From: an uncultured Erysipelotrichaceae bacterium | GTDB lineage: Bacteria; Bacillota_I; Bacilli_A; RFN20; CAG-826 | Length of the DNA stretch: 64,000 nt | Assembly (NCBI GenBank): GCA_900315885.1 | Contig: ONAT01000004.1 | Location: 32,580 to 96,579 of the forward strand | Direction of reading: 5' to 3' | Shown: positions 3,580-46,467 of the stretch, in pieces | How positions within the stretch are numbered: position 1 is the stretch's first letter | Layout: each line of letters begins with the position of its first letter | Notes under the pieces: model-generated | What the model saw: only the letters and a program-made list of their open reading frames with translations | What the model was told of the DNA's origin: nothing | Database searches by the model: none | Translations under genes and position numbers: made by a program

Positions 3580-3600
3580 TACTTTTATTGAGTATCAATA

Positions 3601-3630
3601 AACACCTTGTTTTTCAAGGTGTTTTTTCTT
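3601..3630 (+). terminator. Rho-independent terminator (AACACCTTG / CAAGGTGTT + T-run)
   Basis: 9-bp perfect stem, loop TTTTT, followed by TTTTTTCTT. Confidence 0.7.
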
Positions 3631-3659
3631 AAAATAATAGCAAGAAGTTGGTGAAGTAC

Positions 3660-5390: not shown

Positions 5391-5796
5391 AGAAATATGG
5401 CGTTTTATTAAATTTACATTATTTTCAATTTCAGCAGGAGTTATTCAATTTGGTTCTTTTGCACTTTTTAATGAAGTAATTTTCCATGATGGCGAGTTTG
5501 GTTTATCATACTTTTTATCTTTGGTGTTATCAATCTTATGGAATTTTACTTTTAATTTTAAATTCACCTTTAAGGCCGCGACAAATGTGCCAAAGGCTAT
5601 GGCTCTAGCATTCTTGTTCTATGTGTTCTTCACCCCTATTAGTGTCTTTGGTGGCAATTGTTTAACGAAAGAATGTGGATGGAATAATTATCTTGTGGAA
5701 GCAATTATGATGGTATCTAATTTTATTTTAGAATTCTTTTGGTCTAAATATGTCACATATCGAAATAAAATTGATACTAAGCCAACTACAGAATAA
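5380..5796 (+). CDS. GtrA family membrane protein
   Basis: 138 aa, 4 hydrophobic segments. FIKF.LFS..AGVIQ and WNFTFNFKFTFK resemble GtrA-like proteins. An 11-nt overlap with the exporter stop suggests translational coupling. Confidence 0.7.
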   Translation: MKTKEIWRFIKFTLFSISAGVIQFGSFALFNEVIFHDGEFGLSYFLSLVLSILWNFTFNFKFTFKAATNVPKAMALAFLFYVFFTPISVFGGNCLTKECGWNNYLVEAIMMVSNFILEFFWSKYVTYRNKIDTKPTTE

Positions 5797-5839
5797 TTAA
5801 TAAGGATAGTAATAAAGCATTTATTAATTATTAAATAAA

Positions 5840-5848
5840 TGATATAAT
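5840..5848 (+). promoter_or_regulatory. Extended -10 element TGATATAAT
   Basis: TGnTATAAT lies 28 nt upstream of ATG 5876. It sits where the ORF-track start 5849 would be, which supports ATG 5876 as the true start. Confidence 0.4.
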
Positions 5849-5875
5849 TTGAATAGCAAAGGAGATTATATAAAT

Positions 5876-6544
5876 ATGTATACATTAATTGATAGAATTA
5901 TTTCCGTTTTTGGAACATTTGAATTAACAGAGGATAAAATCAAAGCTATTGGTACTCACTTCCCAGAATTAAAAGTTGGTATTGGCAAAGATCCACATGG
6001 AAATGTTGCAGGTAGAATCCAAGATCCTAATGGAAAATCACCACTTGCTTTAGGTTTTAGCCGTAATAGAGTTGATTGCTTCTTAGGGGCTGCAACTAGC
6101 AAAGATAGCCGTACTGAATTATTAAAAATGATTGATGCACTTGTCGTAGCATTAGATGAAATCAAAGACTATGGCATTAACCGTCTTGCATATAATGGTC
6201 GTGCTTTCTTAGAAGACAGTATGGGTGTAAAACGTGTTCTTTTAGGTAGTAAAGTTCCTCTATTAAACACAGATTCACCAATGATTGAAACATCTATTAG
6301 ACTCAATTATCGTGAAGAATATTTAAATGAAGAAATTAACAATATTATTTCTATCCAAGATGGAAATGTAACATCAAAGGAAACAAATGCATCAACAAAA
6401 GCTTTAATTATGGGCGCTGATGTTAACACAATTGGACAAAAACAAGAAGCTAGATTTACAAAGGATGATTTTGAACCAATGTTTATTCATTTCTTAGAAT
6501 TAGCTACTAAATCATTTGAAGATCTTGATGAATTATTAAAGTAA
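5876..6544 (+). CDS. Hypothetical protein
   Basis: AAGGAG lies 11 nt upstream of ATG 5876. 222 aa soluble protein, no family recognised. Confidence 0.6.
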   Translation: MYTLIDRIISVFGTFELTEDKIKAIGTHFPELKVGIGKDPHGNVAGRIQDPNGKSPLALGFSRNRVDCFLGAATSKDSRTELLKMIDALVVALDEIKDYGINRLAYNGRAFLEDSMGVKRVLLGSKVPLLNTDSPMIETSIRLNYREEYLNEEINNIISIQDGNVTSKETNASTKALIMGADVNTIGQKQEARFTKDDFEPMFIHFLELATKSFEDLDELLK

Positions 6545-6549
6545 AAAAA

Positions 6550-6585
6550 GAAGCGATATGTTATTAGCATGTCGCTTTTCTTTTG
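6550..6585. terminator. Bidirectional terminator between convergent genes
   Basis: Hairpin GAAGCGATATG / CATGTCGCTTT with an A-run upstream and a T-run downstream. Confidence 0.65.
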
Positions 6586-6591
6586 CCTTTA

Positions 6592-7239
6592 TTAAATATG
6601 TTTTAATAGTTCTTTAGGACTATCGATAATTATTTGTGCTTGATGAGATTTAAGAAATTCTTTACTTCTAAATCCCCATGAAACAGAAATACAAGGTAAG
6701 CCTGCATTTTTAGCAGTGGCTATATCAACATCTGAATCACCAACAAAGACACATTCATTGTTTGTATAATTAAAATGATGCATAGCTTCTAAAGTTGATT
6801 CAGGATTTGGCTTAGTTTTATTAAAGTCACGAGTGCCAATTGTTATGTCAATTAAATCGTTAAAATACAAATTGACAAGTGCTTTAGCGGCAACATCGTT
6901 TTTATTGGATATTACAGCAGTGTGATATCCTTTTTCTTTTAGTGTTTTAAGTAATTCGATTATCTCATCATAAGGTTTGGTAAAAACTTTATCATGTGAT
7001 AAATAGTAATTAATGAAATCGTTATATGCCTCAGCGTATGTTTCTTCATCAACATTAGATGGCAAAGCACGTTTCATTAAAACTTTTGTTCCATTTCCAA
7101 CGAATTCTCTAACTTCTTCAAGTGTCCTTTTTGGGAACCCTTGCGAAATTAAAGCGTAATTGACTGCGTTTTTTAAATCAGTTAGAGTGTCGAGCAATGT
7201 GCCATCAAGATCAAAAATAATTAACTTATATTTTTGCAT
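6592..7239 (-). CDS. HAD-superfamily hydrolase (phosphoglycolate phosphatase-like)
   Basis: Motif I FDLDGTLLDT, motif II ISNK, motif IV GDSDVD. Confidence 0.8.
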   Translation of the reverse strand: MQKYKLIIFDLDGTLLDTLTDLKNAVNYALISQGFPKRTLEEVREFVGNGTKVLMKRALPSNVDEETYAEAYNDFINYYLSHDKVFTKPYDEIIELLKTLKEKGYHTAVISNKNDVAAKALVNLYFNDLIDITIGTRDFNKTKPNPESTLEAMHHFNYTNNECVFVGDSDVDIATAKNAGLPCISVSWGFRSKEFLKSHQAQIIIDSPKELLKHI

Positions 7240-7243
7240 AAAA

Positions 7244-8086
7244 CTATTCTCCTTTGATAATTGCGTTATAAATTACGTTTTTACTTACATTATATTTTTC
7301 ACTTGCAAGTTTTGCGGCAAGTTTAGTGTTAACACCATTTTTAATTAATTCTTTAGCGTAAGATAAAACAACATCTAAATTTATTTGTTTATCTTCTTTT
7401 TCGCCATCCACAACAATAACCATTTCGCCTTTTAATGTATTAGCATCTAAGGAAGCAAGAGTATTTAAATCTTCACGGATAAATTCTTCAAATCTTTTAG
7501 TTAGTTCACGAGCTATACATGCTTTTCGATTGCCTAAAACATCTTTTAAATCCAAAAGCGTATCAGTTATACGATGTGGAGATTCATAAAAAACCATTGT
7601 TTCTTTCTTGTGTTTTAAATCTTCAAGTTCTTTTAATCTTGCAGATTGTTTGCTAGCTAAGAAGCCATGGAAGTAAAAGTGTGAAGTATCTAAACCAGAA
7701 CCCACTAAAGCGTTAAGCATTGCGTTTGGTCCAGAAATAACACTTACTTTAAATCCGTTTTCTAATGCTTTTACCACCAAGCGATGACCTGGGTCAGAAA
7801 TACCAGGATAACCAGCATCAGAGACATAAGCAATATTTCCAGTTTCTAAATATTTTAATAATTCTTCACTTGCCATCTCTTCGTTATGTTCATGACAAGA
7901 GATTAGTTTGTTGCTAATGCCAAAATTTGCTAGTAATTGTTTACTAACACGGGTATCTTCACATCCAATTGCTAAAACGGATTTTAAGATGTTAATTGCT
8001 CGAGGATTCATTTCTTCTAAGTTACCAATTGGCGTTGGAATTAGATATAAAATATGCAAATTTTCATCAAAATTCCTATTTCTCAT
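7244..8086 (-). CDS. rsmI: 16S rRNA (cytidine1402-2'-O)-methyltransferase
   Basis: LYLIPTPIGNLEEM...EDTR and SDAGYPGISDPG motifs. Conserved position after yaaT. Confidence 0.9.
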   Translation of the reverse strand: MRNRNFDENLHILYLIPTPIGNLEEMNPRAINILKSVLAIGCEDTRVSKQLLANFGISNKLISCHEHNEEMASEELLKYLETGNIAYVSDAGYPGISDPGHRLVVKALENGFKVSVISGPNAMLNALVGSGLDTSHFYFHGFLASKQSARLKELEDLKHKKETMVFYESPHRITDTLLDLKDVLGNRKACIARELTKRFEEFIREDLNTLASLDANTLKGEMVIVVDGEKEDKQINLDVVLSYAKELIKNGVNTKLAAKLASEKYNVSKNVIYNAIIKGE

Positions 8087-13171: not shown

Positions 13172-13432
13172 AATAATCACCAAGTGTATTATATCACTTT
13201 TCTTGTTTCTATTTAAACATTAAATAGAAAATATCATATAACATAAAATATTTAAAAAATTAGTGAGAGAATATTTCACATCTAAAGTTTTATAAATTAG
13301 AAGCAAAGAAAAAAATATGTACAATTTGCGTTTCTTTTTTAAGCAGTGCATAAAAATTGCAAATATTGTAATATAGTTAATGAATTGTTATAAAAAAAAT
13401 GATAAACTATACATTTGAAAGTAGGGATACTT

Positions 13433-14509
13433 ATGGAAGAAAAATTACATTCAAGATTAGAGGCGACAGAAAAGCGTCTTGCAGAAATTGATAAACTTCT
13501 TATGGATGAATCAACAATGAAAGATATGAAATTGTTCCGTGATTTATCAAAAGAAAGAGCAAATATCGCTCCTGTTGTCGAAAAATATGAAGTATATAAG
13601 AAAGCAACTCAAGATAAAGAAGATGCGAAAGTAATGGCTAATGAAGCTGATGAAGAATTATCTTTATTAGGAAAAGAAGAACTTAAAAGATTAGCTGAAT
13701 TAGAAGAAAAAACAGTTGAAGAAATTAGACTTTTACTTTTACCAAAAGATCCTAATGACGATAAGAATATTATCGTTGAAATTAGAGGCGCTGTCGGTGG
13801 AGATGAAGCTAATATCTTTGCTGGTGATTTGTTTAGAATGTATACAAGATATGCAGAAAAACAAGGTTGGAAAATTCAAATGATTGATGAAGCACCTTCA
13901 GAAATGGGTGGCTTCGCTATGGTTTCATTTATGATTAAAGGCGAGGGTGTTTATTCAAAGTTAAAATTTGAATCAGGTGCTCACCGCGTCCAACGTGTTC
14001 CAAAGACTGAGGCACAAGGAAGAATCCATACATCTGTAGCAACAGTTCTTGTTATGCCTGAAGCAGAAGAAGTTGAAATTGAAATTAGAAACGAAGACTT
14101 ACAAGTTGATACATATCGTTCACAAGGCGCTGGCGGACAAAACGTTAACAAGACTGAATCAGCTGTACGTATTACTCACATACCAACAGGTATTGTTGTA
14201 GCGTGCCAAGTTGAAAAATCACAAATTCAAAACCGTGAAATTGCGATGAATATGTTAAGAGCAAAGTTATTTGCGGCTAAACAAGCAGAGCAAGATGAAA
14301 AAATATCTTCTGAACGTCGTTTGAAAATTGGTACAGGTGAACGTTCAGAAAAAATTAGAACATACAATTATCCACAAAACCGTGTTACTGATCACCGCAT
14401 TGGATTTACAGTTCAAAAACTTGACCGTGTCATGGAAGGCGATTTAGATGAAATTCTTAATGCTTTAATTGATGCAGATCAACAAGACAAATTAGCAGGA
14501 GCACAATAA
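13433..14509 (+). CDS. prfA: Peptide chain release factor 1
   Basis: PKTEAQGR (PxT-type) recognition region and GGQ motif SQGAGGQNVNKTESAVRITH. Followed by prmC. Confidence 0.95.
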   Translation: MEEKLHSRLEATEKRLAEIDKLLMDESTMKDMKLFRDLSKERANIAPVVEKYEVYKKATQDKEDAKVMANEADEELSLLGKEELKRLAELEEKTVEEIRLLLLPKDPNDDKNIIVEIRGAVGGDEANIFAGDLFRMYTRYAEKQGWKIQMIDEAPSEMGGFAMVSFMIKGEGVYSKLKFESGAHRVQRVPKTEAQGRIHTSVATVLVMPEAEEVEIEIRNEDLQVDTYRSQGAGGQNVNKTESAVRITHIPTGIVVACQVEKSQIQNREIAMNMLRAKLFAAKQAEQDEKISSERRLKIGTGERSEKIRTYNYPQNRVTDHRIGFTVQKLDRVMEGDLDEILNALIDADQQDKLAGAQ

Positions 14510-22335: not shown

Positions 22336-23446
22336 ATGCGTGATTTAGTCACGATACAATCTAGTTTGTTAGAAGTCACTAAGCAATTCAATAAGCTTAG
22401 TGACTCTCTTTGACGTTGATAAAATAAAAAGTAGCATTAAAGAAATCGAACAAAAAATGGCGTCCGATTCCTTTTGGAATGACCAAAAAGAATCTAAAAA
22501 AGTTATGGATACTCTCTCAGACTTAAAAGAAAAATATAACGCCTATGAAGAGATAGATGCGATGATTAAAAATATATCTGAATTAGTGGATATGACAACT
22601 GATTCTGATACAAATATGATTGAAGAAATAGATAGTGAATTAGATAAATTGATTGCAAAAGAACATGATTTTAATATCATGATACTTTTTGCTGGTGAAT
22701 TTGATAATTGTAACGCTATTTTGGAATTTCATCCAGGCGCAGGCGGTACAGAGAGTCAAGATTGGGCTGAAATGCTTTACCGTATGTATATTCGTTGGGC
22801 AGAAGATAAACATTTTAAAATGCAAATATTAGATTTCCAACAAGGCGAAGAAGCGGGACTTAAATCAGCTTCAATCCTTATTAAAGGAAAAAATGTTTAT
22901 GGTTTACTTAAAGGAGAATCAGGAGTGCATCGACTTGTAAGAATATCGCCATTTGATGCTTCAGGAAGAAGACACACATCTTTTGCTTCCGTTAATGTTA
23001 TGCCAGAAATAAACGATAATAATGACATTGAAATATTAGATAAAGATTTAAAAATTGATACTTATCGCTCCCAAGGTGCGGGAGGTCAAAATGTTAATAA
23101 GACTGAATCGGCAGTACGTATTACCCATATTCCAACAGGTATTGTAGTTTCGTGTCAAATAGATCGCTCGCAATTACAAAACCGTGAATTAGCGATGAAT
23201 ATGTTACGTTCAAGACTCTTCCAAATTAAGATGCAAGAAAAGCAAGAAGAGTTAAACAAATTACGTGGAGAAGTAAAAAATATAGAATGGGGTTCACAAA
23301 TAAGATCATATGTATTTTGTCCTTATACGATGGTAAAAGACTTACGAACTGAGTATCAAGAAGGTAATGTTACCAAAGTTATGGATGGTCAGATAGATGG
23401 ATTTATTGAAGCTTATTTAGAAATGGAGGCAAAGAAAAATGAATAA
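22336..23446 (+). CDS. prfB: Peptide chain release factor 2 (needs a programmed +1 frameshift)
   Basis: ATG 22336 opens a 25-codon frame (MRDLVTIQSSLLEVTKQFNKLSDSL) that ends at in-frame TGA 22411. The +1 frame continues DVDKIKSS... to 23446 and carries the SPF tripeptide (RISPFDA) and GGQ. Confidence 0.9.
22408..22414 (+). promoter_or_regulatory. prfB autoregulatory +1 frameshift site CTT TGA C
   Basis: Exact CTTTGAC heptamer at the junction of the two prfB frames. Confidence 0.9.
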
Positions 23447-33269: not shown

Positions 33270-33737
33270 GTGAATTTTGATAATTTAAAACCATATGAAT
33301 TCTTTTTTAGTGTTGGTTATGTAACTTTAATAGCGAGTGTATTGACACTTGTAATTACGCAGTTAATAAAAAAGATCTTAACTAAAAAAGGAATTCTATA
33401 TGAAGGTATGGAACAAAGCAAAAGAGATATGTTTTTGTCACGCATTGGACGCATTGTTGCATTATTAAGCTATGTTGCAATTTATCTAATTAACGCATTC
33501 TTAACTAAGCATACTTTGGTGTTAGACAAATCTCTTCTTGCAGGTTTACTGAGTGGAGCATCATTAACTCTTGTTATTGCAAAATCAATTTATACTTCGC
33601 TACATCAATATTTTAAAAAGAAAAATGTTTTTGAGCGACTTGAGTGTTTAGAAAAAGTAATTGATGTTTTAGAAAATGAAGTAAATCAAGATGAAAAAGA
33701 GAAAGTAAATAAATGGCTATTAACTAATAATAAATAG
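33270..33737 (+). CDS. Small 3-TM membrane protein with charged C-terminal tail (holin-like topology)
   Basis: AAGGAGG then GTG 33270. Three hydrophobic segments: FFFSVGYVTLIASVLTLVITQLI, IGRIVALLSYVAIYLINAFL, LLAGLLSGASLTLVIAKSIY. The tail is ...ENEVNQDEKEKVNKW. It ends 9 nt before the Rhs gene. Confidence 0.6.
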   Translation: MNFDNLKPYEFFFSVGYVTLIASVLTLVITQLIKKILTKKGILYEGMEQSKRDMFLSRIGRIVALLSYVAIYLINAFLTKHTLVLDKSLLAGLLSGASLTLVIAKSIYTSLHQYFKKKNVFERLECLEKVIDVLENEVNQDEKEKVNKWLLTNNK

Positions 33738-33746: not shown

Positions 33747-36700
33747 ATGAAAAAGATAATAGTAAAAGAAAGTACAAATGAAGTTATAGATTCTTCTATA
33801 AAAGAAGAAAACAAAATCAAAAAAGATGAAAAACAAAAATTTTTTGATATAAAATTTGAAAACAATTTAAAGAATAAAAAAGTTTTTAGTTTAACAAAGG
33901 ACAAACACCAAGTAGATTTATCATTTCTTGGTAGAAAAGGAAAAGAATTAAGTAATGCACAAGGTGTAGAAATTGGTAATCATGTAAAATACACAAATTT
34001 TGAAAAAGGGTTAGATTTATCGTATGACTATCAAGATAATCTTGTTAAGGAAAGTGTAATTATTAATGAAAGAAAAGATAATTATGATTTTAGTTTCTCT
34101 TTAAACATTGGAGAGTTAAAACCAATATATAATTCTGAAACAAGGACATTAGAATTAAAAAATAATGGTAACACAATTTATCGCATTCTTAGCCCATTTA
34201 TGGTCGATAAAAACAATGTAAGAAGTGATGATTGTTCTTATGAAATTGAACAACAAGATAGTAATTTGATGATTAATTTACATTGTGATTCCGATTGGAT
34301 TAATGATGAGAGTCGAGTGTTTCCAGTAGTGGTAGATCCTACAATTGAAGTTGTAGGAGATGTTATACATGTTAAACAATATGTTGATGATAGTATTGAA
34401 GAATCTAGAGGGCTTAAAATTGGGTTAGATAGGTATGGAGTTTATGATTTAGAATTTGTCGTTAACTGCAGTTTGCTTAAAAAGAATATAAATGACTTTA
34501 GTAGAGTTGTTATATCATTGCAGGTTATGTCACATTTAAATGACATGATGTCATCAAATCAAGAGTATCAACTAACTTTTGGTAATAACAAAATATATGC
34601 AATAAGGCATAGCGATATAAAAGATGTCGTTAGATTTGATATTACTGATTTGGTCCTTGAAACATCTACAAACCTTAACTTAAAATTCGGCCCTGTAACA
34701 AGAGATTCTACTATTCAAAAAATAAATGGTAAAGTAATTTATAGATCATTTAAAACCTACTTTTATCCTTTTAGTTATAGTAAAGATGAAAGTAAAAAAT
34801 CAGAACTCATTATTGAATATGATAAGAAAAAGTGTTTTAACAATATAAAAGATTATAATGTTGGTAAATTAAATAGTTTGCTAATCGATATAAGAAATGG
34901 TGATTATAAAATTATTAATGATTTAGACTTTAAGCTTAAGTCGAACACTATTGATTTCGATGTGAAAGCTGTTTATGACAATCAAAATTCAAATAATTAT
35001 TACATGAGTGACTATTGGAAAACCAATTTACATCAAATTTTAGAGAAACCATCTTCTTATCAAAGTGTTTTAGGCGCAACACGAATTACTTATGTTGATG
35101 GCCTAAACAAAAAACATATTCTTATGACAAAATGGTATTATGTAAAAAATAACCAAAAGAACTATGTTCAAAAAAAAGATATATATTTAGATAGCGATGG
35201 AAAGCTCAAATATAATAAAGATGGTCAAGTTTATGAAATTAAAAGCGAAACCACTAATGAAGAAGGTATTACATATGCATCAGGAAATGACATTTCTAAT
35301 TTCAATCAATTAAAGGATTCAACAAAATATCATTACGAGATTAAATGTGGAGTTGGGACAATAAGTGATATCCAAATAATTAATTATACTAGAATTAAAA
35401 TACCAAAATATGTGGAACAAATTGATAGCAATGGAACAGAAGAAGACATTAGATTTGAAAACATAGATATTATAAATGGAAAGTCATTAATTTCCGGAAA
35501 CAATGTCATATTAAAAGGAACACAAGAAGTTGCATTAAAAGCAGACGGAGATGGTCTCTACTTTAAATATCAAGTATATATTGATGATGAAGTTTGCATA
35601 GAAGAACAACGAGTGGATATTAAACCAGATTTAGATAATTATGACGCAAACGATGATATCTATTTAAATGAAGATATCTTAAATATTAATTCACAAATTA
35701 AAAGTATAGAGAACTCTAAAAGACAAGCATATCTATCACTAAATTCTGCGATTACATCAATTCGTAATTTAGATGAACAAATTACATATCAATGGCGACT
35801 TATTGCTAGAACTGGCACTAAAGAATATGATGCTGAATTTAAACGTTTATATGAAGATAATAGTATAGGAATGAAAACTTTAAAAAGTTTTATTACAAAA
35901 TGCAACGATAGTGAAGATTTAAATGGTGCATTTAAATTGGATAGTAATGGCAAATTACAAGTTGTATTAGCGGATAAGGTTAGTGAAACGAAAAATGCAG
36001 GAACTGTATTAAGTGTCATTTCAAATTATTTAACATTATTAGGTAACAAGATTACTTTGCTAAATAAAACTATTGAAAAAGATTACTCCGGTGACTATGA
36101 AAGTTTTCAATTAAAATTATTGAATCGTCAATATAACGATGCAAAAGAACAAATGGAATTAATGATAAATAGTTGCTTTGAATATGATAAACAACTAGAT
36201 TATTTAAAAGGGCAAAAGAATCAATTAGTAAATAGTCAAAAGAAAGAAATAAATGACTTTATTATTGATAAAGATGGCAACACTCTTGGATTTGATGGTT
36301 ACGGACATTTAATTCTTATTCAGGACAGATATGAAAATAAAATAAATATTGAATATGATTATGATGATATTGAGACGGGTAGATTAAGTAGAGTCATAAG
36401 TGATATGAATACTTTAGAATATCATTACAATAAAGTTACTAAATTGTTAGATTATATTGGCGATTCAAGAGGAGTAAATACTAAATTTGTATATATCGGT
36501 GATGAAGAATTGCAATTAAGTTCAATCGCTGGGGCAAAAGAAACCACTACATTTAGTTATGGTAATACTTTCATAATAAAAACGTTATTAAATAGTCTTA
36601 AGTTAATTCATAATGACGATGATACAGTTAGTGTTAAAGAGTATTATTTAAACACAAAAATTGGTGAGAATATAACTTTTGATAGTTCTGTAGACGAAAT

Positions 36701-39700
36701 TAATACAACTGATGATTTATATATTTTTGATACAACAAGTTATTTAAAAACAATTATTAGAGATAAGAAAACAAATAATAGTAATGATTTAAATGAAACG
36801 AAAGAAGATGAAGTATATTACTTTTCATCATCTGGAAAATGTGTTAAGAATGTAACTGATGAATTTGTAAACGTATCTTATTACAATCTTGACTTACTTA
36901 AACAAGAGGCAACTTATAGAAATAACGATGAAGTGATTATAAAGCCATTAACAATATATGGAGAAAGTCATGAATATAGTTTCGATTTGACTAGTAACAA
37001 TAATGAGTTATTAAACAAGATAAAGCAAGCAGACCTTATTGGACTTAAATTAGTTTTAAACACAGGAAATGTTGATAACATAGGTATTCTTGATTTGGCT
37101 TTAAGAGTTGATGTTACTACGAGCACTAATAAAGTTGAAACCTTCAGCGAGTCATTCCAAGAGCTTAAACTCCAAGAAGTTGTGTTACCTATTTTTGTTA
37201 ATACAAGTAATATCAAAAAGTTAGTCATAAATGTTACGAGTAAGTCTAGTGACTTCAATGATAGTTATATAGATGTTCTTGACCTTATTGCCTTAGAAAA
37301 TGGTGCCACTTATAAATACGATAATAAAGATAGGTTGATATATAAACAAGATAAAGAAGCAAAGATAACTTATAGCGATTTCGATGCTCATGACAACCCT
37401 TTACAATCAGTTAGTGTTGATAAGTATGACGCAACAGTGACTACTAAATATGCATACGATGTTGAAAATAGATTGACATACGTTGAAGATTCTTTAGGCA
37501 ATGTTAACGAATATTATTACGATGATAATGGACAATGCATTAAAAAGAGATCGTATAATAAAGAAGATGCTTCTTTAGTGCGTCAAGAAACATATGAATA
37601 TGATGATAAAGGACGTATTAAAGATAAAAAAGGACCAATTAAAAATAAAAATAAGGACTATCCTTTAGAACATATTGAATACTTACCTCATAGTGAAGTA
37701 ACCTCAAAGGTTATAGGATATAATAAACTAGCTACAAATTATACCTATGACTATTTAACTAATGACTTATTGTCAATAAGTGCAAGTGCAGATGGTATTA
37801 GTAATTCAAATTCATTTGGCTATACAAAGGGTTTCTTGACATCTGTTTCAAGTCGTGGAGTTAAGGTTAAGTATGTGTATGATGGAAGAGGCAGAATTGA
37901 GTCTATATATCTTAATGATGATAGTGAAGACAATATTGATGGTGATATTGAAGATGATAAAAAGGCTTTTATAAGTAATGCTTATGTCGACAATTATAAT
38001 AGTAATCCAAGTAGTCTAGAAAACGACTTAAATATTAAATATGGCACATATCAAAAATCCACATATAAAAATGGATTAGAGGAAGGCATCTTTACTAACT
38101 CAAAAGGCCAAGTTTTAAGAGTGGAAACTGAAGAAACGGATAGAACTATTAGAATTGATAATACATATGATTCAAATGGTAATATTACAAATACACAAAG
38201 CACAATAACTGAAGGCGATGTTGTAACAACAGAAGATGTTACTTACACATATGATAGTCATAAAAAATTAACTAAAATGGTTAAAAAGATTGATGATGAA
38301 AGTGTATATGAAATAGAGTATGAATATAACGATAGAGATTTAATGGATGGCGAAACTATAAAACTAGATGGTGAAGACATTGAGACTGGATATGATTATG
38401 ATTTAAAAAGAAGGATAACACATGCTCTTCAAGATAATTACAATTGTGATATTACATATGATGCCCTAGATCGTATTACTCATAAAGAAGTCGGAGAAGG
38501 TAACGTTACGATTTGTCATACGTACTCTTATCTTAAAGAAGAAGATAATAGTTTAGATTTAATCGCTAGTGATATCGTTAAAGTCAAAGTGGTAAATGGT
38601 GATAATACAACTTATCAAATTGAAACTAATAGATATAGTTACGACGAAATGGGAAATATCATAGAAATAGATTGTGATGAAAGTAAAACAAGATATAAAT
38701 ATGATGCCTTAAGTAGATTAGAAAGAGAAGATAATCCATCTTTAAATAAAACTATAGTTTATAAGTATGATGAAAAAGGAAATGTCATTTTGAAAAAGAC
38801 CTATTCATATACATTAGATGATAAACTAGAAGAAACTCCTGTCATAGATGAGTATGTGTATTCATGTTCTAATTGGGGAGATCAATTGATTGATTATAAT
38901 GGTAAAACCTTTAAATATGACAATATGGGAAGACCATTAGTGTATAAAGGCGATACATGTACATGGAGTCAACGAGGTGAATTAAAGAGTGTAAAGAAAG
39001 ACAATCAAGAAGCATTTAAATACTATTATGACGCGAATGGTATACGAAACAAGAAAATAGTGAATGGCGTAGAAACAAAATTCGTAGTAGTGGGAACAAA
39101 GATACTAAAAAGCATCATAAAGGTAGGAAATGAAGAAAGAACAATAAAATACAAATACGTTCTAGATAAATTAGAAGGATTTGTATATACTAAAGATGGA
39201 ATATCAAAAGAGTATAGATACGAACGAAATATATTTGGAGATATTACAAGGCTATATAATAGTGAGGGAAGCATAGAAGCAACATATGTATATGATGCAT
39301 ATGGAAGGGTAAAAGTAATAAACTCAATAGGCGAAGAAGACACTAATATAGAATTCATAGGTAATATAAATCCATTTAGATATCGTGGATATTATTTTGA
39401 TATTGAAACAGGATTGTATTACTTAAATAGTAGATATTATGATCCAGAGTTAGGAAGATTTATAAGTCCAGATACAATGGAATATTTAAGCCCTAACAAT
39501 ATTAATGGATTGAATTTATATTGCTATTGTAATAATAATCCGATTAATAAATACGACTCTACAGGACACTTTGGAATTTGGGCAATTATAGGAATTGTAT
39601 GGGCTGCGATTCTTTTAGGAGGAGGGGCTCAATTGGCATCCAATGCACTTGCTGGTGAAACAGGTAGTGATTTATGGCGAGGAGTTGCTGGTTCAGCATT

Positions 39701-40130
39701 GGGTTCTGGTGTAAATGCATTGGCATTAATTTTGGCTCCATTTACTGGGGGAGCCTCATTAGCATTTGCCGCTGGGTTAGGGGCTGTGGTTCAAACTGGC
39801 GTTGATACACTCGAAACAGTTATTAGAGGCGAAAATGTGAATGGTTTGCAAACAGTTGCTGACCTAGGTATTAATTTTGTTACTACATTTGCTGGTAACT
39901 GGTTGGGGGCAAAATTGGTTCCTACGAACAGTGGTTGGTTTCAAACGAAAAATTTCTTGAGTGTATTTATAAAACCTTATGGACAAAAAATTTTATTACA
40001 AACTGCAATTGGTGCTGGACTATCAGGAACTGTCAATTTTGCAAGAAAATTTGACTGGAGTAGTATTGATTGGAGAAAGTTTGTACCAGCAATACCTGTT
40101 CCAATGATTCCAATTTATCCGTATTTTTAG
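33747..40130 (+). CDS. RHS/YD-repeat polymorphic toxin, 2127 aa, no N-terminal signal peptide
   Basis: AGGAGG RBS. Many YD repeats from about residue 845 onward (YEYDDKGRIKDK, YTYDSHKKL, YKYDALSRLERED, YVYDAYGRV). RHS core end RYYDPELGRFISPD...NLYCYCNNNPINKYDSTGH. Confidence 0.95.
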   Translation: MKKIIVKESTNEVIDSSIKEENKIKKDEKQKFFDIKFENNLKNKKVFSLTKDKHQVDLSFLGRKGKELSNAQGVEIGNHVKYTNFEKGLDLSYDYQDNLVKESVIINERKDNYDFSFSLNIGELKPIYNSETRTLELKNNGNTIYRILSPFMVDKNNVRSDDCSYEIEQQDSNLMINLHCDSDWINDESRVFPVVVDPTIEVVGDVIHVKQYVDDSIEESRGLKIGLDRYGVYDLEFVVNCSLLKKNINDFSRVVISLQVMSHLNDMMSSNQEYQLTFGNNKIYAIRHSDIKDVVRFDITDLVLETSTNLNLKFGPVTRDSTIQKINGKVIYRSFKTYFYPFSYSKDESKKSELIIEYDKKKCFNNIKDYNVGKLNSLLIDIRNGDYKIINDLDFKLKSNTIDFDVKAVYDNQNSNNYYMSDYWKTNLHQILEKPSSYQSVLGATRITYVDGLNKKHILMTKWYYVKNNQKNYVQKKDIYLDSDGKLKYNKDGQVYEIKSETTNEEGITYASGNDISNFNQLKDSTKYHYEIKCGVGTISDIQIINYTRIKIPKYVEQIDSNGTEEDIRFENIDIINGKSLISGNNVILKGTQEVALKADGDGLYFKYQVYIDDEVCIEEQRVDIKPDLDNYDANDDIYLNEDILNINSQIKSIENSKRQAYLSLNSAITSIRNLDEQITYQWRLIARTGTKEYDAEFKRLYEDNSIGMKTLKSFITKCNDSEDLNGAFKLDSNGKLQVVLADKVSETKNAGTVLSVISNYLTLLGNKITLLNKTIEKDYSGDYESFQLKLLNRQYNDAKEQMELMINSCFEYDKQLDYLKGQKNQLVNSQKKEINDFIIDKDGNTLGFDGYGHLILIQDRYENKINIEYDYDDIETGRLSRVISDMNTLEYHYNKVTKLLDYIGDSRGVNTKFVYIGDEELQLSSIAGAKETTTFSYGNTFIIKTLLNSLKLIHNDDDTVSVKEYYLNTKIGENITFDSSVDEINTTDDLYIFDTTSYLKTIIRDKKTNNSNDLNETKEDEVYYFSSSGKCVKNVTDEFVNVSYYNLDLLKQEATYRNNDEVIIKPLTIYGESHEYSFDLTSNNNELLNKIKQADLIGLKLVLNTGNVDNIGILDLALRVDVTTSTNKVETFSESFQELKLQEVVLPIFVNTSNIKKLVINVTSKSSDFNDSYIDVLDLIALENGATYKYDNKDRLIYKQDKEAKITYSDFDAHDNPLQSVSVDKYDATVTTKYAYDVENRLTYVEDSLGNVNEYYYDDNGQCIKKRSYNKEDASLVRQETYEYDDKGRIKDKKGPIKNKNKDYPLEHIEYLPHSEVTSKVIGYNKLATNYTYDYLTNDLLSISASADGISNSNSFGYTKGFLTSVSSRGVKVKYVYDGRGRIESIYLNDDSEDNIDGDIEDDKKAFISNAYVDNYNSNPSSLENDLNIKYGTYQKSTYKNGLEEGIFTNSKGQVLRVETEETDRTIRIDNTYDSNGNITNTQSTITEGDVVTTEDVTYTYDSHKKLTKMVKKIDDESVYEIEYEYNDRDLMDGETIKLDGEDIETGYDYDLKRRITHALQDNYNCDITYDALDRITHKEVGEGNVTICHTYSYLKEEDNSLDLIASDIVKVKVVNGDNTTYQIETNRYSYDEMGNIIEIDCDESKTRYKYDALSRLEREDNPSLNKTIVYKYDEKGNVILKKTYSYTLDDKLEETPVIDEYVYSCSNWGDQLIDYNGKTFKYDNMGRPLVYKGDTCTWSQRGELKSVKKDNQEAFKYYYDANGIRNKKIVNGVETKFVVVGTKILKSIIKVGNEERTIKYKYVLDKLEGFVYTKDGISKEYRYERNIFGDITRLYNSEGSIEATYVYDAYGRVKVINSIGEEDTNIEFIGNINPFRYRGYYFDIETGLYYLNSRYYDPELGRFISPDTMEYLSPNNINGLNLYCYCNNNPINKYDSTGHFGIWAIIGIVWAAILLGGGAQLASNALAGETGSDLWRGVAGSALGSGVNALALILAPFTGGASLAFAAGLGAVVQTGVDTLETVIRGENVNGLQTVADLGINFVTTFAGNWLGAKLVPTNSGWFQTKNFLSVFIKPYGQKILLQTAIGAGLSGTVNFARKFDWSSIDWRKFVPAIPVPMIPIYPYF
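39570..40127 (+). other. Rhs C-terminal toxin domain (186 aa, glycine/alanine-rich, hydrophobic)
   Basis: Starts right after the core-terminating NNPINKYDSTGH motif. Small-xxx-small glycine-zipper-like runs: LLGGGAQLASNALAG, GVAGSALGSGVNALALILAPFTGGASLAFAAGLGAVV, AIGAGLSG. Confidence 0.7.
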
Positions 40131-40140
40131 AGGTGAAAAT

Positions 40141-40528
40141 TATGATTATTAAAGATAAATTAATAAAAGAGTATCCGCTAACTAAAAAAATAGATTGTTC
40201 TTTTGAATGCTTTGAAGTTATGAAAAGAAGGTATGTTATTTTTTATGATGAAAAAATCAATAAAGAAAATATGGAATCTTTATTGGATGTATTTAATGAT
40301 AATTCGAAAAATAGCTTTACAGAAAAAAGAACATTAATTATAGTTGGGCATACGGATGAAAAGTTTAATAAAAAAGATTTATTGTTTTTTAACGGAGTTG
40401 ATACATTTGTTGTTTATTATTTAATAAATGATAACAACAAAGAAATTTACTTTAATGATCAAAGAGTGTTCTGGTTCAGTGTTGATTGGAAAAAAATAAT
40501 TAAAAAATTTAATGAAATATTAAAATAA
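40141..40528 (+). CDS. Candidate cognate immunity protein (129 aa, soluble)
   Basis: GAGGTGA RBS overlaps the Rhs stop, and the ATG is 10 nt after it. This is the canonical immunity position. No family recognised. Confidence 0.6.
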
Positions 40529-40555
40529 ATAGTGAATTTCTTTCACAAGCAAAAC

Positions 40556-40598
40556 TAGGTAAGTTTACTCAATGGGTAAGCTTACCTTTATTTTTTAT
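40556..40598 (+). terminator. Rho-independent terminator after the toxin-immunity pair
   Basis: AGGTAAGTTTAC / GTAAGCTTACCT hairpin followed by TTATTTTTT. Confidence 0.65.
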
Positions 40599-40620
40599 GG
40601 TATGGATTCAAAAATAGTCA

Positions 40621-40818
40621 AATTCACGATTTCTATTTACAAAAATCTTTTAAATATTTCATCTGAATGTTAAAATTAAAATAAAGATAGGGGTGAAATA
40701 ATACACGGGTTAATAATGTAATAACAATATAATGTAAAAAAATTAAAAAAATTCATATAATTATTTTCAAAATATTTATATACAATATTTTAGAAAATAT
40801 ATTAGTTAGCTAATTAGA
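40621..40818 (+). repeat. Direct repeat copy 1 (198 nt), upstream region of the 40844 cassette
   Basis: Aligns with 43444..43631. I count 4 substitutions, one 9-nt tandem duplication (AAAAAAATT) and a 1-nt indel. Confidence 0.9.
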
Positions 40819-40843
40819 CACATCAAAGGTTGGAAATTTAAGA

Positions 40844-41053
40844 ATGAAAAAAAAGACGTTTTATCAAACTAATATTTTTTGGCAGTTATTTTGTTTTGTG
40901 TTTCTTGCAATTTTTATATTGATTTTTATAGTCACTGTGCAATGTATTATTGCAATTATAAAAAATGGATTTGGTAAAACAATTTCCGATATAATGGCCT
41001 CTGTGTTTATATTAGCAGTACTTGTTATTGGTTGTTCATTGGCGTTAATCTAA
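40844..41053 (+). CDS. 2-TM N-terminal half of an interrupted 2TM+PH-like gene
   Basis: 69 aa with two hydrophobic helices. Its TAA at 41051 is in frame with ORF 41105..41449, and no other stop lies between them. Confidence 0.5.
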   Translation: MKKKTFYQTNIFWQLFCFVFLAIFILIFIVTVQCIIAIIKNGFGKTISDIMASVFILAVLVIGCSLALI

Positions 41054-41104
41054 TTCATTATTTTAGAACACAACAATGTTCATTTAACAAAAGACAAAAT
41101 ATAT

Positions 41105-41449
41105 ATGAACAATGATTGGAATCCAAAGAAAGATAAAATACAATATTATACTGAAGCATATTTTGCTGATATTGAATCTATTGATATTATTTGGACAAAA
41201 ATGGATTCTAGAGGTAAATTGATTAGACCTAAGCTTATCTCTGCTTCAGTAGAAAAGCCATATTTATCTATAAAAACTAAAGATGGTAAAATATCTAATT
41301 TCTTTGTCATGTATATTCCGAAGAAAAATGTAATAAAAATAATAAATGAAATTAGTTATCGAATGAAAAGTGTAGGGAACAATATTAAGATTATTAATTC
41401 CGATGAAGCATATTTAAAAATTAAGAAAAAAATTTATATCGATATCTAG
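41105..41449 (+). CDS. Soluble C-terminal half of the interrupted 2TM+PH-like gene
   Basis: Same frame as 40844..41053. No SD precedes ATG 41105. The layout matches the soluble halves of 44667..45080 and 45979..46467. Confidence 0.45.
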   Translation: MNNDWNPKKDKIQYYTEAYFADIESIDIIWTKMDSRGKLIRPKLISASVEKPYLSIKTKDGKISNFFVMYIPKKNVIKIINEISYRMKSVGNNIKIINSDEAYLKIKKKIYIDI

Positions 41450-41577: not shown

Positions 41578-41862
41578 TTGCTAGATTCAATCAAACAATT
41601 AATCAATTGGCATGGCGGAATTGCCTTACTGATTGCTTTCGGAATAAGTACTGTTTTAGGTGGTGTATATGGAAGCGTATCAGTTGCTGAAAGTATACTT
41701 TATGATATTAATAATCCTTATGGGTTTAGAGACTGTGATTGGGGAGAATTTAAACTACATCCAGATCTAGACTTAGAAGAAAAAATTAATCAATTTGAAA
41801 TATTAGGAGATTATAAAGAAGACTTAAGAAAAAGAAGAGAAAAATGGTATAAAGAAGTATGA
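41578..41862 (+). CDS. Small single-TM protein (94 aa) coupled to the cyclase gene
   Basis: TTG start with no obvious SD. Glycine-rich TM GGIALLIAFGISTVLGGVYGSV. The stop TGA overlaps the GAGGTG RBS of the cyclase, whose ATG is 8 nt downstream. Confidence 0.35.
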   Translation: MLDSIKQLINWHGGIALLIAFGISTVLGGVYGSVSVAESILYDINNPYGFRDCDWGEFKLHPDLDLEEKINQFEILGDYKEDLRKRREKWYKEV

Positions 41863-41870: not shown

Positions 41871-42620
41871 ATGATGTATGAATATGATTATATAAACGGA
41901 AAAAGAAGAGTAAACGAGATACTAAATGATTCCAATGAAATTGAGGCAAAAGAGAAAGTACCAAAAGAAAATGATTTTACTTTTCATAATGGTTATTTTG
42001 CTTGGGTTACTGCTGTATTTGTTGACATAAGGGATTCAACATCAATTTTCACAGAAAATAAGAAGACTTCAACTTCAAAAATTATAAGAGCATTTACTTC
42101 CGAAGTAATTGGAATTTTAAAGGACGACGATAATTTGCGCGAAATTGGTATTAGAGGAGATTGTGTATATGCTATCTATACTACATCCCAAAAATACGAA
42201 GATTATGAAATTGCGAATAAAGTGTTTTATGTAAATACTTTTATGAAAATGTTAAATAAATTATTGCAAAACAAAAACATGAAAACTATTAAAGTTGGGA
42301 TTGGCGTTTCTACAGCACAAGAACTAGTTGTTAAAGCCGGAAGAGAAAAAACTGGCATTAATAACTTAGTATGGATTGGAAAAGCGGTAACTTATGCTTC
42401 TAAATTTTCTTCTTTAGCAAATTCTAATGATTATAATAACATTATTTTTTCCGACAACTTTTATAATAGTTTTATTGGGGATTTAAAAAATAACAATAAA
42501 AATAAAAATGTTGAATCTTGGTTTAAGCAACATAGAGATAGCAAATTGGGTTATTTTTACGACTGTGACATAATCAAATCAGAATTCAATGATTGGATTG
42601 AAAATGGTATGAAAGGATAA
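41871..42620 (+). CDS. Stand-alone class III nucleotidyl cyclase (Pycsar PycC-like)
   Basis: Cyclase homology-domain motifs in order: AVFVDIRDSTSIF (metal Asp 1), IRGDCVYAIY (metal Asp 2), IKVGIGVSTAQELVVKAG, VWIGKAVTYASKFSSLA. 249 aa with no other domain. Confidence 0.7.
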   Translation: MMYEYDYINGKRRVNEILNDSNEIEAKEKVPKENDFTFHNGYFAWVTAVFVDIRDSTSIFTENKKTSTSKIIRAFTSEVIGILKDDDNLREIGIRGDCVYAIYTTSQKYEDYEIANKVFYVNTFMKMLNKLLQNKNMKTIKVGIGVSTAQELVVKAGREKTGINNLVWIGKAVTYASKFSSLANSNDYNNIIFSDNFYNSFIGDLKNNNKNKNVESWFKQHRDSKLGYFYDCDIIKSEFNDWIENGMKG

Positions 42621-42635
42621 CAAAGGAGAGTTTAG

Positions 42636-43142
42636 ATGAACAAAAATGAAGAAAAATATGAAATTTTATCTGGGATAAGTAATCAAATATCATCTTTTGA
42701 TAATAAAGCGAGCATTTTAATTTCAGCTATAGGAATTGTTTTCGCATTATCTTTATCTTTCTTAGATGTGTTTTGTGAAGATGATTTTTTATCAAAATGT
42801 CAAATTTTTAAAATAATTTACTATGCATTATTTATATTATTTATTATCAATACAATTGTTGTAATAGGTTCATATATATTAGTTATTATTCCTAGGAAGA
42901 AAATTGGAAATAATAAATATGCAAATTATTATAACGACATTGCTGATTTAGATATTTATGGTCATAAGGAATATGATGATTTGTTAGAAGATTATACAAA
43001 AAACGATAATTTACTTACAGAACAAATTATTATTAATTCAAAGATATGTAAAACCAAACATTTATTTTTGAAAGTTGGTATAATATCATTAATACCATTT
43101 TCAATATTGTTATTGGTTCTTATTGTACTGACAATAATTTAA
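42636..43142 (+). CDS. Multi-TM effector (Pycsar PycTM-like)
   Basis: AAGGAG RBS 15 nt after the cyclase stop. N-terminal helix with the SFDNKASILISAIGIV motif as I recall it for Pycsar effector domains. 3-4 hydrophobic segments, 168 aa. Confidence 0.65.
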   Translation: MNKNEEKYEILSGISNQISSFDNKASILISAIGIVFALSLSFLDVFCEDDFLSKCQIFKIIYYALFILFIINTIVVIGSYILVIIPRKKIGNNKYANYYNDIADLDIYGHKEYDDLLEDYTKNDNLLTEQIIINSKICKTKHLFLKVGIISLIPFSILLLVLIVLTII

Positions 43143-44645: not shown

Positions 44646-44666
44646 TCATTAGGAGGATTGATTATT

Positions 44667-45080
44667 TTGAAACAAAAATTTTATAAAAATTTATTTCAAA
44701 CGATGTCATATTTTGCTGTAATAATAATTTTCGAGGTGTTTTTACTTATTGGTTTTTTTGCTAGTTTAAGTTATGGTCAAAATTTTGGTTGGATACTATT
44801 GATAATATCTTTATCTTTAATTGCATTATTCTATCTAATAGGGTTTTATTGGATTTTCCAAATAGTATCTATTGATGAACATGGAATTAAAATATTATTC
44901 AAAAGTAAAATTGTTAAGCAACTTAAATGGGAAGAAATAGATACAATAGAAGAAGCAAATATAATGAGAAATCCAGCACTAAGAATTAAAGCATTTGATG
45001 GAAGTGAAATTCATTTAGATAAAAGAAAACAAATTGTTAAAGCGATAGAAATATATTCGCAAAATAAAATAATAAAATAA
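44667..45080 (+). CDS. 2-TM + PH-like small membrane protein (paralog B)
   Basis: AGGAGG at 44651-44656. TTG 44667 has better spacing than TTG 44658. Two TM helices, then a soluble IVSIDEHGIKILFKSKIVKQLKWEEIDTIE... domain. Confidence 0.6.
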   Translation: MKQKFYKNLFQTMSYFAVIIIFEVFLLIGFFASLSYGQNFGWILLIISLSLIALFYLIGFYWIFQIVSIDEHGIKILFKSKIVKQLKWEEIDTIEEANIMRNPALRIKAFDGSEIHLDKRKQIVKAIEIYSQNKIIK

Positions 45081-45172: not shown

Positions 45173-45358
45173 ATGTGGGAATTTATTAAATATTGTCTAT
45201 ATTGTTTATTAATGTCAATCTCTGCTGCTTTTGGAAACAATCCTGAGGGAATGACATTCAAACACGCAATAGTTGGAAGTATTACAATGTTTGTATTATT
45301 AGGATTAGCTTTGGGCATTCTTTGGTTAATTGCAAGGGTTGTTAATAAATCTAGATAA
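45173..45358 (+). CDS. Small 2-TM membrane protein (61 aa)
   Basis: TAGGAGGA RBS 7 nt upstream. Two hydrophobic segments. Confidence 0.5.
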   Translation: MWEFIKYCLYCLLMSISAAFGNNPEGMTFKHAIVGSITMFVLLGLALGILWLIARVVNKSR

Positions 45359-45978: not shown

Positions 45979-46467
45979 ATGGTTTTTGTGAAAAAGATTT
46001 ATTCAAATAAGTCCGTTATTTACTTTTCAATCTTTGGGATTGTTTTTATATCAATAATAATGATTTTGAGTATTATTTCCTTAATGTCTAATGTGGAAGA
46101 AACTACAAATAATATTCTTATGATTATTGTGTTGATATTAATATATTTATTCTTTTTAGTGTTGTTTGTTTTTTCGTTAAATAAATTTGGATATAAAGTA
46201 ATATATGATAGTAATAAAAAAGTTATTTCTAAAAAAGGATTTATCTTTGGACACGAATACCAAATAAAGCTAGAAGATATAAAAGAAGTGGCGGTGTTAT
46301 CACTACCAAAAGAAACAGCTTATTATGTTTTAACTGATTCAAAAGATGATAAACAAGAATCATTTATTAAAATTAAGAAAACAAAAAAGAATGAGGCTTT
46401 TGTAAAACAATTTTGGGATAAAGCAATTAAGGAATACGAAGATTACGAAGAATTGTTTAATAAATAA
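45979..46467 (+). CDS. 2-TM + PH-like small membrane protein (paralog C)
   Basis: AAGGAG RBS. Two TM helices, then YKVIYDSNKKVISKKGFIFGHEYQIKLEDIKEVAV... and a C-terminal helix. Confidence 0.6.
   Translation: MVFVKKIYSNKSVIYFSIFGIVFISIIMILSIISLMSNVEETTNNILMIIVLILIYLFFLVLFVFSLNKFGYKVIYDSNKKVISKKGFIFGHEYQIKLEDIKEVAVLSLPKETAYYVLTDSKDDKQESFIKIKKTKKNEAFVKQFWDKAIKEYEDYEELFNK

Follow-up and report, generated by a model that had tools for sequence, protein, structure and literature searches.

Colicin-type pore-forming domains are membrane-permeabilising C-terminal payloads of bacteriocins, and the immunity proteins of colicins and of ionophoric CdiA-CT toxins are integral membrane proteins. Tse5 (RhsP1, PA2684) of Pseudomonas aeruginosa carries an Rhs tail, Tse5-CT, that has no predicted enzymatic function, inserts into the membrane and forms ion-selective pores, and its immunity protein Tsi5, with two predicted transmembrane (TM) regions, is recovered in the cytoplasmic-membrane fraction (PMC9637101). 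Polytopic membrane proteins confer immunity to channel-forming effectors "in almost all cases"; EsxX in the cytoplasm, however, is countered by ExiAB, a soluble pair of DUF5085 proteins, and TelE by soluble TipE, and ExiCD, which are membrane proteins and the ones found as orphans, guard against EsxX from outside (PMC12744356). The same work argues that, with the toxin shielded by the Rhs cage, cytoplasmic immunity to Tse5 is unnecessary (PMC12744356). Here we analyse an Rhs gene in a 64,000-nucleotide (nt) stretch of contig ONAT01000004.1 from an uncultured Erysipelotrichaceae bacterium (the whole stretch is called the window below). Its product ends in a hydrophobic tail of 186 amino acids (aa), directly followed by a gene for a soluble 128-aa protein, and the two appear to form a mobile toxin/immunity cassette.

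Like Tse5, the window tail stands at an Rhs C-terminus after an autoproteolysis motif, is hydrophobic and lacks an enzymatic signature; membrane insertion and depolarisation have been shown for Tse5 and are here proposed for the window tail. Unlike Tse5-CT in sequence, the tail family found at best an unrelated protein (E = 0.39) when its profile was run against all PDB chain sequences, a set in which the presence of the Tse5-CT chain is unconfirmed; the Tse5 entries 8cp6 and 9i9y match the window Rhs over the core end only, and the best Foldseek match of the tail model in PDB stands at E = 0.55. Tse5 is delivered by a Gram-negative bacterium's type VI secretion system (T6SS), whereas no delivery system was identified for the window Rhs, and unlike Tsi5 the window partner has no TM segment and is accompanied by no membrane protein conserved nearby. 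As what would be a membrane-permeabilising C-terminal payload of a polymorphic toxin, the tail is comparable to the ionophoric CdiA-CT toxins (PMC11630599), but it has no Pfam, PDB-sequence or fold similarity to these or to colicins, the colicin pore-forming domain giving no Pfam match at E ≤ 1 and being absent from the 50 Foldseek PDB matches listed.

The likeness to EsxX–ExiAB of S. aureus and TelE–TipE of S. gallolyticus is of another kind: there, as presumably here, a hydrophobic non-enzymatic toxin of a Bacillota-type host is neutralised by an adjacent small soluble cytoplasmic alpha/beta protein. EsxX and TelE, however, have N-terminal LXG domains, use the type VIIb secretion system and contain an extended strict glycine zipper, whereas the window toxin is an Rhs tail without one; the defining motif of the glycine-zipper membrane toxins as a group (TelE, EsxX, TspA, Tse4 and CdzC/D) does not occur in it. 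ExiA, ExiB and TipE are DUF5085/GyrI-like, and the 128-aa protein showed neither a DUF5085 Pfam match at E ≤ 1 nor a GyrI-like (duplicated SHS2) fold among the 50 Foldseek matches listed. The orphan gene of the EsxX system encodes membrane ExiCD, in contrast to the soluble orphan found here, where no ExiCD-like partner is conserved. The window pair therefore fits none of the Tse5, EsxX and TelE patterns, being an Rhs tail with no strict zipper and with a sole partner that is soluble, of an unrelated family and retained as an orphan. Pore-forming Rhs tails and soluble antidotes are each known, and what is new is their combination in a putative Rhs-borne membrane toxin whose only conserved partner is cytoplasmic. 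A first-pass annotation of this DNA had proposed a new pore-forming Rhs payload with an unusual soluble immunity protein; a membrane-acting payload is indeed the best reading, but with Tse5, TipE and ExiAB as precedents the proposal was overstated.

The Rhs tail and its partner gene as a cassette

The Rhs protein has the features of an Rhs/YD-repeat polymorphic toxin, namely a YD shell (RHS/YD repeats PF05593, E = 7e-10, and TIGR01643, E = 4.9e-5), an Rhs-associated core (TIGR03696, E = 1.3e-22, residues 1849-1941) that ends exactly at the motif NNPINKYDSTGH, and a variable tail with an immunity gene and exchanged orphan cassettes. Homologues have NxPVNxxDPTGH in the same alignment column as NNPINKYDSTGH, and the core end aligns with solved Rhs structures (8h8a, Tse5 8cp6_B, TccC and others); these matches stop at the core end, save for weak ones to SGS1/SGS4, which reach query residues 463 and 469. 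From known Rhs proteins (PMC9637101) we infer that the window Rhs is cleaved at this motif.

Several lines of evidence tie the tail to the 128-aa gene. First, of the 24 species-representative genomes recovered through the toxin, 22 have a homologue of the 128-aa gene 3' of the tail homologue, in 20 of them no more than about 60 nt away, and six loci obtained by exact-protein look-up (L001-L006) keep the same tail–immunity order down to 35-50% identity. Second, when the search is made from the immunity side, 13 of 24 partly redundant metagenome contigs with at least 600 nt of upstream sequence have an intact tail directly 5', seven have a frameshifted or truncated tail and four have none. Third, the tail and immunity distance matrices correlate (Mantel r = 0.92 for 30 non-identical pairs, a value reached in 0 of 2000 permutations), with the immunity protein diverging faster than the tail (0.45 against 0.32 in the 30 pairs). 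The correlation shows co-inheritance, and co-evolution is compatible with it but not proven by it.

A sister strain (ENA contig L001) indicates how the pair may travel. Its main Rhs protein (2095 aa, 1039..7326) ends in a different tail, here called CT_A, after which come, in order, a 167-aa gene with two TM segments (2-TM; 7329..7832), a 102-aa membrane protein gene, a 217-aa orphan module and a 128-aa gene. This orphan cassette is 100% identical to the window pair in protein and 99.5% in DNA. By blastn, window positions 39154-50139 match L001 8437-19413 at 99.5%, and the Rhs body (window 34811-39578) matches L001 2094-6825 at 88.5%; because the two alignments overlap at 39154-39578, the junction lies within the conserved core end, as would be expected if the tail had been replaced by homologous recombination in either direction. 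The pair thus appears to move as a unit, standing as an orphan cassette in L001 and joined to the main rhs gene in the window. Downstream in the window, a 94-aa open reading frame (ORF) related to CT_A (window 41619-41692 against L001 6822-6895, 86% by blastn) is in all appearance the scar of an earlier tail exchange at the locus.

Immunity homologues also stand alone, with no toxin nearby, at L031 3001..3387, L048 2989..3420, L052 2962..3393 and L054 3001..3390; the first lies between a serine dehydratase-like gene and rpsL/rpsG/fusA, and the second comes immediately behind an orphan tail of the CT_A type with its 2-TM partner. Such lone genes, and those beside tail remnants, argue for a role in protection against incoming toxin. 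Synteny, co-divergence and cassette mobility together strongly support the 128-aa protein as the cognate partner of the tail, in agreement with the first-pass annotation, which had made the adjacent soluble protein its immunity candidate, and these genome comparisons show 39570..40528 as a conserved, evidently mobile two-gene Rhs tail/immunity cassette drawn from two undescribed families (Table 1).

Table 1. Features of the locus, numbered from the first nucleotide of the window.
Feature	Position	Strand	Remarks
155-aa multi-TM protein gene	33270..33737	+	directly 5' of rhs; ends 10 nt before the rhs start
Rhs ORF	33747..40130	+	2127 aa, single frame
Rhs N-terminal region, YD-repeat shell and Rhs-associated core	33747..39569	+	residues 1-1941
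Recombination zone	39154..39578	+	matches the L001 main rhs end and the 5' remnant of the L001 orphan cassette
Core-terminating motif NNPINKYDSTGH	39534..39569	+	PxxxxDPxG[LH]-type autoproteolysis site; tail begins after His
C-terminal toxin domain (putative)	39570..40127	+	186 aa, Rhs residues 1942-2127
Ribosome-binding site GAGGTG of the 128-aa gene	40130..40135	+	6 nt 5' of the ATG; one-base overlap with the rhs TAG stop (40128..40130)
128-aa soluble alpha/beta protein, candidate cognate immunity	40142..40528	+	ATG at 40142
Intrinsic-terminator-like hairpin	40557..40597	+	14-bp stem and T run, 3' of the 128-aa gene
94-aa ORF, CT_A tail remnant	41578..41862	+	phmmer to the L001 main Rhs, E = 2.3e-5
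PycC cyclase	41871..42620		PADLOC PDLC02368, E = 1.3e-86; Pfam Guanylate_cyc, E = 6.6e-7
PycTM effector	42636..43142		PADLOC, E = 3.8e-19; PF18967, 27.3 bits against a cut-off of 27.2
140-aa 2-TM protein	44658..45080	+	homologous to L009 7540..7971, E = 4e-20
61-aa 2-TM protein	45173..45358	+	homologous to L012 2760..2960, E = 1.5e-21

Properties of the tail and of the 128-aa protein

The tail contains 14.0% Gly, 12.9% Ala and 5.4% Ser, compared with 5.3%, 2.1% and 7.4% in the core, it is devoid of both His and Cys, and its coding sequence has a GC content of 40.1% against 27.7% in the core. It had been labelled a glycine-zipper domain dominated by small-xxx-small runs, a description that survives in part. 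Both peptides quoted in its support are present, but the small-xxx-small pairs number 23 against 18.7 +/- 3.0 in composition-preserving shuffles, about 1.4 standard deviations above. The zipper label itself fails: the motifs (G/A/S)xxxGxxxG and GxxxGxxx(G/S/T), as defined in PMC12744356, occur 0 times in the tail, which has only two GxxxG motifs, and in the family a strict motif is found at most once, and non-conserved, in five of 19 members. The signal is one of Gly/Ala-rich hydrophobic helices, not of zipper register. Residues 1-19 have a TM-like insertion energy (summed dG about 0) and are the sole segment to reach that level, hydrophobicity is moderate over residues 38-74, and helices 4 and 5 have an amphipathic character. 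CT_A of the sister strain shares with the tail the Rhs scaffold and position, a TM-like helix after ...GH, Gly/Ala richness and recombination at the same locus; unlike the window tail, it contains at least five strict glycine-zipper motifs and has the 167-aa 2-TM partner, and the two tails fall into separate BLAST clusters at E < 1e-5.

A single-sequence search with the tail gave 89 homologous clusters and a profile search over 1.84 billion representative proteins gave 148, 65 of them at E ≤ 1e-10; none of the 89 is annotated, and at 50% identity the family amounts to some 150 clusters. Its members always have the domain at the C-terminus, with a median of six residues after it. In 20 longer members scanned for domains, 17 had only the RHS_repeat/YD shell and three had no match, and no LXG or other trafficking domain was found in any of the 20. 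Hosts are gut metagenome-assembled genomes (MAGs) labelled Bacilli, Mollicutes, Anaeroplasma (placed in Mollicutes by NCBI), Anaeroplasmataceae, Avacholeplasma, Clostridium sp. CAG:307 and Clostridia. By these searches the family is previously undescribed and is seen solely at Rhs C-termini in gut Bacilli/Mollicutes-like MAGs. The TM-like first helix is general among the 128 near-full-length members (median KD19 1.94, and at least 1.6 in 90%), which have a median of 25% Gly plus Ala and 11% charged residues. Twenty-five tail positions are invariant: ten Gly, the ten polar or acidic residues Q21, S24, N25, Q75, D79, E82, N110, Q144, S152 and N156, and W36, V39, L51, F133 and L142.

An AlphaFold2 model of the tail (pLDDT 75, pTM 0.71) has helices at residues 3-27 (TM-like), 39-55, 61-85, 92-116 and 136-160, and is poorly defined in the loop 121-135 and at 170-186, the C-terminal end being variable and Pro-rich. 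Against Pfam, NCBIfam and PHROGs the tail has no meaningful match, the best (ApoL, E = 0.73; MakE, E = 0.19) lying far below the cut-offs, and at E ≤ 0.1 it matches no nuclease, deaminase, ADP-ribosyltransferase or other family in Pfam or NCBIfam. Foldseek gave no significant match in PDB or in BFVD (best E = 0.40 in the latter); the weak top matches, whose TM-scores in PDB do not exceed 0.30, were to helical membrane bundles of a generic kind and to the vinculin tail. The first-pass annotation was borne out in the extent of the tail after the core-terminating motif and in recognising no nuclease, deaminase or ADP-ribosyltransferase motif, and the structure and profile searches it had named as the check that might overturn its view turned up no known enzymatic toxin family.

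An enzymatic toxin domain (nuclease, deaminase, ADP-ribosyltransferase, NADase or peptidase) was considered as a candidate and is not supported, there being no profile or fold match and no His or Cys, with invariant positions that are mostly Gly together with Q, S, N, D and E.

The partner gene is translationally coupled to the Rhs tail, as read from the overlap of its ribosome-binding site with the rhs stop codon. That overlap, and a product with neither a TM segment (maximum KD19 0.83) nor a family, had been described correctly by the first-pass annotation; the start at 40141 had not, and the ATG one nucleotide further on gives the 128-aa protein. Pfam yields sub-threshold matches only (YodL, E = 0.021; Glycos_transf_1, E = 0.029), and NCBIfam, PHROGs and PADLOC yield none. 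A single-sequence search places 175 clusters in the family and a profile search 347, all without annotation; at 90% identity this amounts to about 350 clusters. The AlphaFold2 model, built on homologues at least 59% identical, is a confident alpha/beta fold (pLDDT 85, pTM 0.82) whose best Foldseek matches in PDB are McrC (E = 0.018) and weak restriction-endonuclease-like folds, none of them significant; the family profile has no relevant match among PDB sequences. A variant of about 330 aa, 332 in the case of L005, occurs at L005 6834..7832 and L020 6564..7571, in which 127 N-terminal residues, 49% identical to the 128-aa protein, are followed by a domain of about 150 aa and then by a 2-TM hairpin. 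The Lys clusters flanking this hairpin predict a cytoplasmic, membrane-tethered immunity domain, and the variant looks like a naturally tethered form of the immunity protein.

The fetched loci (L001-L064 and the window) also allow a wider view of Rhs tails that follow ...DPxG[HN]. In a sample of 19 BLAST clusters, biased towards neighbours of the studied family, 11 start with a TM-like helix, and in 17 the maximum KD19 is 1.77 or more. The Rhs repertoire of these gut Bacilli/Mollicutes-like organisms seems to consist largely of hydrophobic tails, or of tails with a hydrophobic leader helix in common.

Site of action and competing explanations

Our preferred reading, to which we would give a probability of about 0.6, is that the tail acts on the cytoplasmic membrane and that the immunity protein binds it at the cytoplasmic face. 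A membrane-acting payload is suggested as the best reading because no enzyme is recognisable and the domain is conserved, hydrophobic and all-helical. The tail would be held in the Rhs shell and, as in known Rhs proteins, released by cleavage after ...DSTGH. Once released it would most likely partition into the target cytoplasmic membrane, insertion being driven by the TM-like first helix and the hydrophobic pair of helices 2 and 3; the ten conserved polar and acidic residues listed above may line a channel or an oligomer interface, and the membrane potential would be dissipated. The cytoplasmic 128-aa alpha/beta protein would bind the toxin directly, at or from the membrane's cytoplasmic face, and so neutralise it.

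Distant tail relatives are followed by 2-TM proteins in L062 (212 aa), L066 (237 aa) and L061 (63 aa), and in L064 the gene 3' of a closer relative encodes a soluble protein of 158 aa. These 2-TM partners and the tethered variants of L005 and L020 would count for a membrane site of action. Alignment of the immunity domain with the partners by hhalign gave E = 0.011 for L066, 0.1 for L064 and 0.75 for L062, with all probabilities below 4%. A more specific proposal is that the toxin inserts into or crosses the target membrane and that a soluble, sometimes 2-TM-tethered domain neutralises the incoming toxin from the cytoplasmic face, beyond protecting the producer before export; we put this forward tentatively, with the odds against it.

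Several points weigh against action on the membrane with immunity from the cytoplasmic face. The case for membrane action is built from composition, genomic context and a model of medium confidence; there is no strict glycine-zipper motif, and one segment alone is clearly TM-competent. The Rhs protein has no signal peptide, and no secretion system is encoded nearby. The redundancy noted for the metagenome loci means that their counts are not of independent events. The similarity of the immunity protein to the cytoplasmic parts of the distant relatives' 2-TM partners is not significant (E = 0.011 to 0.75). A soluble cytoplasmic protein cannot easily block a toxin inserting from outside unless part of that toxin reaches the cytoplasmic face, and the invariant D79 and E82 could be catalytic rather than pore-lining. 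Finally, the immunity proteins that go with other hydrophobic Rhs tails of these genomes have two TM segments; since the partner here is soluble where kin tails have 2-TM partners, the target may differ and may possibly be cytoplasmic.

That last point leads to the main rival explanation, which we consider unlikely: the sole task of the hydrophobic N-terminal helices (about residues 1-85) would be to bring the tail through the target membrane, and residues of about 86-186 would act on a target in the cytoplasm, where the soluble immunity protein blocks them. A soluble, cytoplasmic immunity protein kept as an orphan would be natural under such an arrangement, as would the invariance of D79 and E82, the near-invariance of E88 and the strong conservation of the PTNxGWFxPxKF...YGQK segment. 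The TM-like helix after the cleavage motif in 11 of 19 unrelated tail clusters fits a generic delivery element, and in one subfamily (P0279, P0293 and P0319) the resemblance is limited to roughly the first 100 residues, the C-terminal half being a different one. There is a precedent in the T6SS DNase Tde1, which is carried across by a glycine-zipper segment (PMC10240207). However, the C-terminal half of the window tail is likewise helical and rich in Gly and Ala, bears no catalytic signature, contains neither His nor Cys and matches no enzyme fold; the whole of some 160 residues is conserved and modelled as a single helical bundle; and the distant full-length relatives pair with 2-TM proteins.

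It is improbable, in our estimation, that the locus is one half of a dual system like that of EsxX, with the 128-aa protein shielding the producer only, from toxin just synthesised or escaped ahead of export, and a separate membrane protein encoded elsewhere stopping incoming toxin. ExiAB (soluble) and ExiCD (membrane) are a precedent for such a division of labour (PMC12744356), and small membrane ORFs do lie downstream in the window (40844..41053 and others), but the surroundings of the pair contain no conserved membrane protein, in many loci housekeeping genes come next, and a terminator separates the pair from the downstream ORFs. Moreover, exiAB co-occurs with its toxin, whereas the 128-aa gene is found as a lone orphan and in immunity islands, and the producer ought to be shielded by the Rhs shell in any case, an argument made for Tse5 in PMC12744356.

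The idea, raised in the first-pass annotation, that the true immunity protein is one of the 2-TM proteins encoded 0.3 to 6 kb downstream and that the 128-aa protein is unrelated to the toxin accords with the membrane immunity proteins of most channel-forming effectors (PMC12744356, PMC9637101) but can hardly be correct, since the ORFs at 44658 and 45173 are homologous to genes that follow other Rhs tail families (L009 and L012), the ORFs of 69 aa at 40844 and of 162 aa at 45979 match the sister strain alone, none of the four co-occurs with the tail family in other loci, a strong terminator lies between, and it is the 128-aa gene that accompanies the tail in 22 of 24 genomes and co-diverges with it.

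Gene neighbourhood and significance of the pair

The transcription unit probably consists of the 155-aa membrane protein gene, first in the operon, then rhs and then the 128-aa gene, because terminator-like sites flank it (hairpins at 32753 and 33165, 5' of the 155-aa gene, and the one listed in Table 1) and the 155-aa gene abuts rhs. The 3' hairpin is the sole such site in 39300..41200, where 0.5 are expected from shuffles. The 155-aa protein has several TM segments and a charged C-terminal tail, is kept in sister strain L001 (E = 2.5e-95), and has no Pfam match above cut-off and no PHROG match. As no Sec signal peptide is evident at the Rhs N-terminus, this upstream membrane protein is a candidate export or release factor, perhaps holin-like. 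No secretion system was found encoded nearby, the neighbours being housekeeping genes such as those for SecA, RF1/RF2, UvrB and RNase R. Both class-I release factors (PCRF and RF-1 domains) are encoded in the window, at 13415..14509 and 22400..23446, so UGA is read as stop despite the Mollicutes-like affiliation of related MAGs, and translation with table 11 is appropriate.

Comparison with other loci suggests that the region from 40.8 to 46.5 kb is an island in which the tail remnant and a Pycsar system stand together with untraced small ORFs and no fewer than two orphan immunity-type genes. L009 7540..7971, the homologue of the 140-aa 2-TM protein, directly follows an orphan Rhs tail of a different family, and L012 2760..2960, that of the 61-aa protein, directly follows a strongly Gly-rich orphan tail (L012 2133..2747); by this homology the two window ORFs are orphan immunity-type genes of other Rhs tail families, not of this toxin. 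The 69-aa ORF (40844..41053) and the 162-aa ORF (45979..46467) likewise have two TM segments. The downstream 2-TM ORFs had been taken for paralogs, but no BLASTP match at E < 0.01 links any of them to another. Across about 50 loci no membrane protein is conserved beside the tail family or 3' of the immunity gene, many of these loci running from the immunity gene straight into housekeeping genes. With no conserved downstream membrane protein and with the traced ORFs belonging to other tail families, locus comparison shows that the 2-TM ORFs are not part of the cassette and that the island is not the likely source of this toxin's immunity.

The Pycsar anti-phage system is complete (41871..43142), lies inside the orphan-immunity island and is also present in L001.

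In a further locus (L066 1..12201, ENA ERZ27280357 k141_422550), a 2066-aa Rhs protein with a distant relative of the tail occupies the tail-fibre position of a prophage-like module, with a tail-fibre-like gene upstream (PHROG 'tail protein', E = 5e-23; Pfam Gp10_C) and small ORFs matching PHROG families and an M23/LysM endolysin downstream. This arrangement suggests that some Rhs toxins of the clade may be carried or released by phage or tailocin machinery.

The pair adds two families, one of putative toxins and one of putative immunity proteins, that have no curated annotation and no solved structural relative. Both are frequent in gut MAGs from humans and animals that bear the labels Bacilli, Mollicutes, Anaeroplasma and Clostridium sp. 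CAG:307, organisms whose mechanisms of competition are almost unstudied. With 186 residues of toxin and 128 of immunity protein, they offer a tractable system for learning how a soluble protein neutralises a hydrophobic toxin, and they put to the test the argument of PMC12744356 that Rhs-encapsulated membrane toxins need no cytoplasmic immunity. If the tail acts in the cytoplasm instead, it is simply another new toxin domain. If, on the other hand, immunity to incoming toxin is exerted at the cytoplasmic face of the membrane, the pair would represent a third immunity logic beside membrane-embedded immunity (Tsi5, TsaI, ExiCD) and pre-secretion sequestration (ExiAB), and one at work in gut Mollicutes-like Bacilli, a group in which weapons used between bacteria have hardly been studied.

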